Part shown: positions 18,621 to 20,544 of the stretch, one piece after another
Layout of the letters: each line of letters starts with the position of its first letter
Position numbering within the stretch: position 1 is the first letter of the stretch
Origin: Escherichia coli
GTDB taxonomy: Bacteria; Pseudomonadota; Gammaproteobacteria; Enterobacterales; Enterobacteriaceae
Length of the DNA: 64,000 nucleotides
Reading direction: 5' to 3' (one strand)
Assembly: GCF_030013595.1 (NCBI RefSeq)
Contig: NZ_CP122768.1
Made by a program: the position numbers and the translations under genes
Notes under the pieces: generated by a model
What the model was told of the DNA's origin: nothing
The model's database searches: none
What the model saw: the letters and a program-made list of their open reading frames with translations, nothing else

Positions 18621-18653
18621 CCTCACCCTAACCCTCTCCCTCAAGGGAGAGGG
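18621..18653. repeat. GC-rich palindromic element in the nrdD-nrdG spacer
   Basis: cctcaccctaa followed by ccctctccc-tcaa-gggagaggg (9-bp perfect stem). Confidence 0.5.
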
Positions 18654-18796: not shown

Positions 18797-19261
18797 ATGA
18801 ACTTTCATCAGTACTATCCTGTCGACATCGTCAACGGCCCCGGCACTCGCTGCACACTGTTTGTCTCCGGGTGTGTTCATGAATGCCCCGGTTGCTATAA
18901 CAAAAGCACATGGCGGGTAAATTCCGGTCAGCCATTTACCAAAGCAATGGAAGACCAGATCATTAACGATCTAAATGACACTCGCATCAAACGCCAGGGG
19001 ATTTCCCTCTCCGGCGGCGATCCGCTGCATCCGCAAAACGTGCCGGATATTCTGAAACTGGTACAACGAATCCGCGCCGAATGTCCGGGTAAAGACATCT
19101 GGGTGTGGACAGGCTATAAACTCGACGAACTCAACGCTGCGCAAATGCAGGTTGTTGATTTGATTAACGTACTGGTCGACGGCAAATTTGTGCAGGATTT
19201 AAAAGACCCTTCCCTGATCTGGCGCGGCAGCAGCAATCAGGTGGTGCATCATTTGCGTTAG
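18797..19261 (+). CDS. nrdG: Anaerobic ribonucleotide reductase activating protein (154 aa)
   Basis: ORF track; radical-SAM CxxxCxxC (CVHECPGCYN). Confidence 0.95.
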   Translation: MNFHQYYPVDIVNGPGTRCTLFVSGCVHECPGCYNKSTWRVNSGQPFTKAMEDQIINDLNDTRIKRQGISLSGGDPLHPQNVPDILKLVQRIRAECPGKDIWVWTGYKLDELNAAQMQVVDLINVLVDGKFVQDLKDPSLIWRGSSNQVVHHLR

Positions 19262-19552
19262 TCACTCATCCAGCCGTTTAGTCGCGTCTTCATAAACGGC
19301 TGAGTTCTCTCTCTTACCAATAGCTATCACCAACACGAGCAACTCTTTATCGTTAACCTGATAAACCAGGCGATATCCCTGTGTGCGCAGCTTAATTTTG
19401 TAGCAGTCCGGTAAATCCCGCAGTTTAGCCGATGGATTGCGCGGCCTTTTCAGCACATCCTCAAGCTTTTTTTTAAATTGTTCCCGGACTGTCACGCCCA
19501 GTTTTTGCCACTCTTTCAGCGCCCGCGGATCAAACGCCAGCTCATAGTTCAT
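19262..19552 (-). CDS. RelE/ParE-superfamily toxin (96 aa), RelE-like
   Basis: ORF track 19262..19630 trimmed to MNYELAFD start at 19552; strong similarity to E. coli RelE from memory (DCYKIKLR..GYRLVYQV, KRE near C-terminus); stop codon abuts nrdG stop. Confidence 0.8.
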   Translation of the reverse strand: MNYELAFDPRALKEWQKLGVTVREQFKKKLEDVLKRPRNPSAKLRDLPDCYKIKLRTQGYRLVYQVNDKELLVLVIAIGKRENSAVYEDATKRLDE

Positions 19553-19784
19553 CCAGTCGGACCTTAATGGCCTCTTGTGGGTTGGCCAGTCGTTCCCTGA
19601 CAGTGCGTAACAAGGCTTCTTCACTATCACTGACAGTGAGCGTTTTTACCGGCATTCGTCCATTTTCCGCAACGTACTGAAACAGCAGTCGCCCTGCTTC
19701 AGTAGGCGTGATATTTAATTTTTCCAGCACCGCATAAGCCTCATTTTTCAGTTTGTCATCCAGGCGGACGTTAAGTGTGGCCAT
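19542..19784 (-). CDS. RelB/DinJ-family antitoxin (80 aa)
   Basis: ORF track; ribbon-helix-helix N-terminus resembling RelB; 11-nt overlap with toxin start; ggagg RBS. Confidence 0.8.
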   Translation of the reverse strand: MATLNVRLDDKLKNEAYAVLEKLNITPTEAGRLLFQYVAENGRMPVKTLTVSDSEEALLRTVRERLANPQEAIKVRLDEL

Positions 19785-19809
19785 TATGCCTCCGGTAATT
19801 ATGAAAAGT

Positions 19810-19839
19810 GTAATGCATTATAGCATTACATATGCATTA
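19810..19839 (-). promoter_or_regulatory. Candidate operator/promoter of the TA operon
   Basis: Inverted repeat GTAATGC-N6-GCATTAC plus a third GCATTAC half-site immediately upstream of the antitoxin start. Confidence 0.5.
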
Positions 19840-19975
19840 CATTCATTTCTGGAAAACGCCTCGCAAAAATGAGGACGACACGCAGGAATATGCCGTGGTG
19901 AAGATAGATATTGCGGTGATTTTACGAAGGGAGAAGAAAGCGTTGGGCGGTAACGTTTCACCGCCCAATAAGGAA

Positions 19976-20365
<390 letters not shown>

Positions 20366-20544
20366 TCACTTCCTTTTTTATTTACACTTCATCCTTCACA
20401 CTGCCTCATCGACGGCTACGCTCATTCGCCCGAGTCACGTACTGCGAGTACGCTCCCCGGCCCTCATTCACTTTCCGTCTCGATGCAGTGCGAATGATTT
20501 TGTGTAATTTTTTAGTTTATAGCGCGGCAGGTCGCGCCAGTTTT

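Follow-up and report, generated by a model that had tools for sequence, protein, structure and literature searches.

The gene pair at the 3' end of nrdG

The window, the whole 64,000-nucleotide stretch of Escherichia coli DNA analysed here, matches E. coli HCP5S3_I2 (NZ_CM149870.1) with 100% identity across 25 kb and carries the gene order nrdD, nrdG, two small minus-strand open reading frames (ORFs), cybC, pmbA and yjgA. The first of the two small ORFs (19542..19784, minus strand) encodes a relB-type antitoxin of 80 aa, with a ribbon–helix–helix N-terminus and a C-terminus expected to bind the toxin. The second (19262..19552, minus strand; ATG at 19552-19550) encodes a relE-type toxin of 96 aa, for which ribosome-dependent cleavage of mRNA is predicted. 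The two ORFs overlap by 11 nt (19542-19552). At the other end of the toxin gene its TGA (tca on the plus strand; 19262-19264) immediately adjoins the TAG of nrdG (19259-19261), so that the two convergent genes stand stop to stop. The ORF lengths, the overlap and the abutting stops agree with an earlier note on this DNA. A Shine–Dalgarno sequence, GGAGG (19789..19793, minus strand), lies 5 nt 5' of the antitoxin ATG and is kept across genera. Farther upstream, a terminator-like hairpin, TTGGGCGGT-N8-ACCGCCCAA (19943..19968, minus strand), is located just 3' of cybC and is common to E. albertii.

The architecture is that of a type II toxin–antitoxin operon: the antitoxin gene comes first, the genes are co-oriented and overlapping, and both products are small (80 and 96 aa). 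Every ortholog examined is built in this way.

A predicted operator with conserved repeats in front of the antitoxin gene

Upstream of the antitoxin gene we predict an operator (19809..19841, minus strand) that reads TGTAATGC-ATA-TGTAATGC-TATAAT-GCATTACA on the coding strand, with two direct copies of the repeat and one inverted copy. It contains a palindrome, TGTAATGC (19809-19816)-ATTATA-GCATTACA (19823-19830), followed by the third copy, ATGCATTACA, at 19832-19841. The earlier note had remarked on an operator-like palindrome with a third half-site at this place; both elements are there, and the palindrome is larger than described. TGTAATGC occurs eight times in the window (2.6 copies are expected by chance), and three of the eight fall within these 33 bp. 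The note's suggestion that the palindrome is a plausible operator is strengthened by the comparison between species: the three TGTAATGC repeats are essentially invariant across 11 species (in E. coli, Salmonella, Citrobacter, Enterobacter and Kosakonia), whereas the neighbouring 5' untranslated stretch between the repeats and the Shine–Dalgarno sequence varies freely.

Between the second and third repeats lies a hexamer that is also nearly unchanged, TATAAT, TATATT or TAAACT depending on the genus. In the window it is TATAAT (19817..19822, minus strand), a predicted −10 hexamer placed inside the operator palindrome. The corresponding −35 element is poor (ATGAAT, with an 18-nt spacing), and because of this weak −35 a strict consensus promoter scan called no promoter at the cassette. 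The promoter is thus proposed from the perfect −10 and from conservation across genera. Taken together, the region is best read as a RelB or RelB–RelE operator surrounding the promoter −10. The K-12 relBE operator (relO) has the same TGTAAT core in another layout: its repeats are differently arranged and appear, as read from the sequence, to lie downstream of the −10, whereas those of the cassette lie around it.

Family assignment of the two proteins

The earlier note had assigned the pair to the RelB/RelE family and judged it similar to, though clearly not identical with, K-12 relBE. Profile searches bear out the first statement. The antitoxin scores 126.8 bits against NCBIfam NF008412 (RelB/DinJ equivalog; cut-off 96), aligning over residues 1-80 of the 80-position profile, and 69.3 bits against TIGR02384 (cut-off 45.65); Pfam PF04221 (RelB) is recorded on its orthologs. 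The toxin passes TIGR02385 (RelE_StbE) narrowly (29.9 bits; cut-off 27.9), and PF05016 and PF15781 are precomputed on proteins 99% identical to it. It also matches the K-12 RelE chains of the crystal structures 4V7K, 4V7J and 4FXE, ribosome-bound forms included, with E about 1e-35 (phmmer E = 2e-35), free of gaps over residues 1-94. The second statement is correct because only 61 of 96 toxin residues (64%) and 38 of 80 antitoxin residues (48%) are identical to those of K-12 RelE and RelB, respectively.

Residues K52, K54, R61, R81 and Y87, reported by Neubauer et al. (2009) and Griffin et al. (2013) to catalyse mRNA cleavage in K-12 RelE, occupy identical positions in the toxin and in K-12 RelE in the gap-free alignment, and all five are kept in 15 of 15 nrdG-linked orthologs. 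The position of the R81A crystallization mutant in 4FXE aligns with R81 of the toxin. RefSeq annotates both proteins, as a RelE family toxin (WP_001105433) and a RelB/DinJ antitoxin (WP_000212715), and more than 1,000 public contigs carry a toxin of exactly this sequence. The antitoxin of the window carries a glycine at residue 31, where the 14 other orthologs all have a valine; this V31G form recurs exactly on 75 contigs, and the substitution could weaken DNA binding. Neither protein matched the PADLOC-DB defence-system models at E ≤ 0.001, and there was no Rfam match within the cassette.

Known relatives

The closest known system is in Salmonella. Lobato-Marquez et al. (2015) list relB2 (SL4379/STM4449) and relE2 (SL4380/STM4450), which together span 517 bp (4712031-4712547 in SL1344); RelE2ST is among their functional toxins and RelB2ST is absent from their list of non-neutralizing antitoxins (PMC4366850). 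STM4449–STM4450 has also been catalogued as a relBE module in Salmonella, in a since retracted paper of which we use only the gene list. The 517 bp of relBE2ST equal 243 + 285 − 11 nt, which is the size of the nrdG-adjacent Salmonella cassette. From this length, its chromosomal position and nrdG, which we take to be STM4451, relBE2ST (STM4449–STM4450) is probably the nrdG-adjacent Salmonella cassette. The motif termed ‘ATGcatTGA minigene’ (PMC8708949), considered as a further tie between STM4449 and this cassette, is absent from the Salmonella sequence that we examined, which comes from a different serovar; we give it no weight.

The Salmonella cassette resembles that of E. coli in its position between cybC and nrdG, its orientation convergent with nrdG–nrdD, its 80-aa antitoxin, the 11-nt overlap and the operator repeats. 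The antitoxins are 88% identical and the toxins 72–74%. The Salmonella toxin has 94 aa rather than 96, and its stop codon lies 9 nt from that of nrdG, whereas the stops abut in E. coli. The order in Salmonella enterica is pmbA–cybC–three small genes–relB–relE–nrdG–nrdD, and Escherichia has deleted the three small genes.

K-12 RelBE (b1564/b1563; 4FXE, 4V7J and 4V7K) is a paralog, at the identities given above. It has the same fold family, the same five catalytic residues, the antitoxin-then-toxin order, the ...LDEL antitoxin C-terminus and the TGTAAT operator core. However, it is carried by the cryptic Qin prophage next to hokD, whereas the present pair stands beside nrdG, and its genes overlap by 1 nt rather than 11. 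The plasmid-borne StbDE/RelBE modules, known for example from plasmids of Pantoea, Klebsiella and E. coli, belong to the same TIGR02385 family and match the cassette with 60–80% DNA similarity over the two genes in 1,139 plasmid records; they are plasmid stabilization modules, whereas the cassette stands on the chromosome, keeps its position from genus to genus and has no high-identity copy on plasmids.

The pair is thus already known: RefSeq annotates it, and a toxicity test has been published for relBE2ST, probably its counterpart in Salmonella (PMC4366850). For the E. coli proteins of the nrdG-adjacent pair we found no experiment or dedicated paper in the searchable literature, and queries for nrdG together with cybC and toxin–antitoxin, for the RefSeq protein accessions and for STM4451, STM4452 and nrdG returned nothing specific to the locus. 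A large survey of E. coli toxin–antitoxin systems treats RelE domains and orphan antitoxins in general terms only (PMC10790755).

A hairpin in the nrdG sense within the toxin gene

The earlier note had concluded from the abutting stops that there was no room for a terminator on either convergent transcript. For the nrdG transcript this does not hold. Beginning 9 nt past the nrdG stop, the plus strand can form a 10-bp hairpin (arms 19271-19280 and 19293-19302) followed by a T-rich tail, AGTTCTCTCTCTT; the whole element (19271..19317, plus strand) lies within toxin codons 79-94. Its folding energy is −14.6 kcal/mol (z = −4.24). When 15 orthologs were submitted to RNAalifold, an 11-pair consensus helix was predicted independently at the same columns. 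In the same 15 orthologs, 77.6% of the cells of the specified 14-pair structure pair, compared with 28–55% when the partner columns are slid. In 12 cells both sides have changed, a number reached by none of 500 shuffles. In Kosakonia, for example, GCCGTTT/AAACGGC has become GCCGCTT/AAGCGGC, a Val-to-Ala change in the toxin matched by a synonymous change in a Lys codon.

Read in the nrdG sense, the structure has 145 paired cells and 20 G–U pairs; read in the relE sense, it has 129 and 4, so that the nrdG sense is favoured. Being within a coding sequence, its arms also owe part of their conservation to coding constraint. As a control for constraint from the protein, we took 60 distinct RelE homologs that do not adjoin nrdG: these form 4.8 of the 11 pairs at −5.0 kcal/mol, compared with 9.7 of 11 pairs at −15.0 kcal/mol in the nrdG-linked group (p about 2e-9), although the nrdG-linked orthologs are one clade and the hairpin statistics are therefore not fully independent. 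The hairpin is probably the intrinsic terminator of nrdDG, embedded in relE. For the relBE transcript, on the other hand, a terminator was sought within the 3' end of nrdG and no structure beyond chance was seen there (z = 0.12), so that on this side the lack of room for a terminator may hold.

Distribution in E. coli and the empty site

Of 5,426 complete E. coli genomes, 454 contain at least part of the cassette and 391 contain it entire; HCP5S3_I2 and PCN033 are examples of cassette strains. The cassette is whole in about 7%, reduced to the antitoxin in about 1%, present with a frameshifted toxin in a few, and entirely lost in about 92%. The earlier note stated that K-12 has no gene between nrdG and its cybC remnant and took the pair to be strain-variable, as it indeed is: in the remaining genomes, K-12 (TG1), ST131 and O157:H7 among them, nrdG and cybC are separated by a spacer of 44 nt, which holds a different hairpin. 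Comparison of the nrdG–cybC junctions, as that note had proposed, shows a segment of 713 nt (19258..19970) in cassette strains in place of 43 nt in cassette-free strains, a net difference of 670 nt; empty-site genomes match over 934 nt, where the window has 1604 nt. The left junction falls within the last codon of nrdG (CGA TGA in empty-site strains, CGT TAG in cassette strains), and it is the cassette DNA that provides the third position of this codon along with the nrdG stop.

Ancestry of the locus

Orthologs were searched for by scanning one genome per bacterial species and then looking up the gene context. A relB–relE pair convergent with nrdG was found in at least nine genera of Enterobacteriaceae, including Salmonella, Citrobacter, several Enterobacter, three Kosakonia species, Klebsiella, Leclercia, Trabulsiella and Pseudocitrobacter. 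In every genus examined the toxin and nrdG stops lie between 9 nt apart and a 4-nt overlap. Silent differences between genera are saturated in the cassette as in its neighbour (antitoxin 0.62, toxin 0.71, nrdG 0.57), and within E. coli the toxin and the nrdG next to it are equally diverged at silent sites (toxin about 0.10).

On the upstream side, homology with the other genera reaches about 88 nt beyond the antitoxin start and stops where a PRD-domain regulator gene, lost from Escherichia, has its stop codon. The cybC-side junction is specific to Escherichia; the type strain of E. albertii has it too, with 82% identity; the antitoxin is also present in E. marmotae and E. fergusonii. Since the same nrdG-adjacent position is found in at least nine genera, the silent divergence is like that of nrdG and a decayed copy sharing the cybC-side junction survives in E. 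albertii, the empty site is the derived state. From these comparisons, the cassette is ancestral to the genus Escherichia and most E. coli have lost it.

Loss of the toxin in Escherichia

About 60 genomes, O145 strains included, carry the antitoxin without the toxin. Two copies of an 11-nt microhomology, TCATCCAG(C/T)CG, lie at 19266..19276 and 19549..19559, and recombination between them removes the toxin gene. Two orphan genomes (L005 and L007) have exactly the junction predicted for this event, with a 79-aa antitoxin ending in RLDE* whose stop again abuts nrdG. The orphan junctions come in two variants, TCATCCAGCCGG and TCATCCAGTCGG, which is compatible either with two independent deletions or with a later point mutation. 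The O145 orphan has, in addition, a point mutation in one operator repeat.

A second route of inactivation passes through the toxin codons K80-R81-E82, where a (TC)n tract of the plus strand (19308..19316), reading AGAGAGAGA in these codons, is a slippage hot spot for 2-bp deletions. The loss of 2 bp in this tract accounts for the frameshifted toxins of E. coli E69 and 2020CK-00188, two strains of different backgrounds; the toxin of the latter is flagged ‘frameshifted’ by PGAP. A frameshifted toxin accompanied by a 22-codon antitoxin stub is found in E. albertii and in one strain labelled E. coli.

Origin, activity and role of the cassette

Three other readings have to be weighed. The earlier note had regarded the cassette as cargo, and a mobile toxin–antitoxin module that had recently entered the nrdG–cybC interval of a minority of E. 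coli lineages would fit the low frequency of about 7–8% in complete E. coli genomes, as well as the abundance of related relBE/stbDE genes on plasmids, in the 1,139 records with 60–80% DNA identity. Yet a recent arrival would hardly share its position and orientation with at least nine genera, nor equal nrdG in silent-site divergence between genera as well as within E. coli, and the decayed E. albertii copy has the same junction. No integrase, inverted repeats or target duplication was seen at the cassette junctions, and a cassette-only search of E. coli plasmids found no copies. The single match of at least 99% in the plasmid collection is a 4.9-Mb record, probably a mislabelled chromosome, and an apparent case on a Klebsiella ‘550-kb plasmid’ was set aside likewise, the record containing nrdDG itself and being probably chromosomal DNA. 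Patchy positions, scars and a low silent divergence from a donor, as in a mobile or accessory cargo island, were not what we observed. We therefore abandon the word cargo and consider recent acquisition to be scarcely credible.

If the cassette is an old resident, it may be asked whether it still works, and as what. The module of the window strain might be a relic, with an attenuated toxin or a defective V31G antitoxin, kept by drift. The several independent routes of toxin inactivation in Escherichia, the glycine at an otherwise invariant valine and the pace of toxin evolution across genera, about twice that of the antitoxin (dN 0.20 versus 0.11), all point in this direction; in the comparison with the K-12 paralog it is, on the contrary, the toxin that is the more conserved partner. 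However, both ORFs are intact with their five catalytic residues, neither the exact toxin (on more than 1,000 contigs) nor the V31G antitoxin (on 75) is confined to this strain, and a dead antitoxin beside an intact toxin would be lethal. Moreover, the 3.5 non-synonymous changes per 220 sites in the toxin within E. coli, against 6.5 synonymous changes per 67, indicate purifying selection. A relic in the window strain is, in our view, very improbable. Somewhat less so, though still unlikely, is the idea that the locus is kept mainly for a role apart from post-segregational killing or growth arrest under stress, perhaps in forming the 3' end and terminator of nrdDG, coupled in antisense to transcription under anaerobic conditions, or perhaps for a toxin-independent, anti-addiction or regulatory antitoxin. 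The conserved nrdG-sense hairpin, the narrow range of stop-to-stop distances in every genus examined, the greater conservation of the antitoxin, the intact antitoxin and promoter in the orphan genomes and the frequency of related toxins on plasmids would suit such a role. But the hairpin is deleted in the orphan state and the whole cassette is missing in the empty state, so neither the hairpin nor the antitoxin is essential, and the operator-repeat mutation of the O145 orphan looks like decay. We are thus left, with high confidence, with a canonical RelBE-type type II toxin–antitoxin operon that is an ancient resident at the nrdG 3' end in Enterobacteriaceae and is decaying in Escherichia.

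Proposed mechanism and significance

In this canonical operon, the promoter with its −10 inside the three-repeat operator would drive relB and then relE, and the 11-nt overlap suggests translational coupling between the two. By analogy with K-12 RelBE, a RelB dimer would bind the TGTAATGC repeats through its ribbon–helix–helix domain and repress the operon, while the RelB C-terminus would wrap around RelE and neutralize it. Upon degradation of RelB, free RelE is expected to enter the ribosomal A site and to cut mRNA by means of K52, K54, R61, R81 and Y87. On the opposite strand, the last 16 codons of relE would provide the hairpin and T-rich tail that probably terminate the convergent nrdDG operon. 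A bolder proposal, to which we give some credence but which we think rather doubtful, is that these codons are truly dual-use: the opposite strand would serve as the terminator of nrdDG, an operon induced anaerobically, the nearly abutting convergent stops would allow nrdDG transcription to slow or process the toxin mRNA in antisense, and the shared 3' end would have anchored the pair since before the genera split. If true, this would explain why a type of gene pair that is otherwise mobile has one fixed chromosomal site. In any case, the hairpin in the toxin gene offers a small, testable case of DNA that is both coding and a terminator for a convergent operon.

As a toxin–antitoxin pair the locus adds little, as the family, the mechanism and the probable Salmonella counterpart have been described and the genes are named in RefSeq. 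Its history is more instructive. Comparison with K-12 suggests strain-specific cargo, when in reality it is an ancestral Enterobacteriaceae locus that a single species shows at several steps of its loss. It constitutes a natural series for how chromosomal toxins get disarmed, by microhomology deletion leaving an orphan antitoxin, by repeat slippage in the catalytic KRE motif or by total loss.

The nrdG–cybC junction and its surroundings

In most E. coli, 43 nt stand in place of the cassette, and no match to this segment was found among the cassette-bearing loci. A strong hairpin, TTCCCTGTTACC...GGCAACAGGGAA, is formed there, within the empty-site nrdG–cybC spacer (positions 766–809 of the comparison loci L002–L004); it is accompanied by no T-run on either strand in these three loci. 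A second hairpin, a perfect G+C-rich stem of 9 bp with a 4-nt loop, lies in the nrdD–nrdG spacer (window 18632–18653), with its arms within CCCTCTCCCT and GGGAGAGGG and the nrdD stop codon about 20 nt upstream. This spacer measures 184 nt in the window compared with 157 nt in K-12.

On the other side of the cassette, the gap between cybC and pmbA is 182 nt long in the window, ST131 and O157, compared with 54 nt in CFSAN018748, and an element of about 128 bp (window 20385–20509) is therefore variably present. We take this element to resemble the ERIC/IRU intergenic repeat; its sole match in Rfam was sub-threshold (Vibrio AS5, 24.6 bits compared with a threshold of 96).

Two PLSDB records filed as plasmids are probably mislabelled chromosomal sequence: NZ_CP129856.1 (Klebsiella, a ‘550-kb plasmid’) carries the core genes nrdD and nrdG, and NZ_CP134663.1 (E. 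coli) is chromosome-sized at 4.9 Mb.

Variation of the antitoxin and toxin genes

Codon 31 of the window antitoxin (19692–19694) is GGG, and the glycine that it specifies falls within helix 2 of the DNA-binding domain. The common allele in E. coli, WP_000212715, has valine at this position, as do all 14 orthologs of other genera. The Gly31 allele is present on 75 public contigs and thus is not a sequencing oddity.

The toxin reading frame also varies. Its catalytic K-R-E motif is encoded by a (TC)n/(AG)n tract (equivalent to window 19308–19316) that appears to be a hot spot for slippage: a 2-bp loss in this tract shifts the toxin frame in both E. coli E69 and 2020CK-00188, which differ from each other at several further sites. 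At the 3′ end, the usual stop codon is missing in Enterobacter sp. Bisph1 (L032, 3001–3354), where the extended toxin ORF of 117 codons enters the 3′ end of the opposite-strand nrdG by about 60 nt; in Pseudocitrobacter (L096, 1788–1791) the toxin and nrdG coding sequences overlap by 4 nt.

Loss of the toxin gene

About 60 complete E. coli genomes have kept a 79-residue antitoxin and its promoter without the toxin, as in O145 RM9467-C1 (L005) and ES5 (L007), both at 1497–1736. The third operator repeat of the O145 copy carries a G-to-A change. Toxin loss in these genomes is a deletion by microhomology between 11-nt repeats at the two ends of the toxin gene (window 19266–19276 and 19549–19559). 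The junctions of L005 and L007 differ at the single mismatched base of this repeat, and the two variants may therefore represent two independent deletions.
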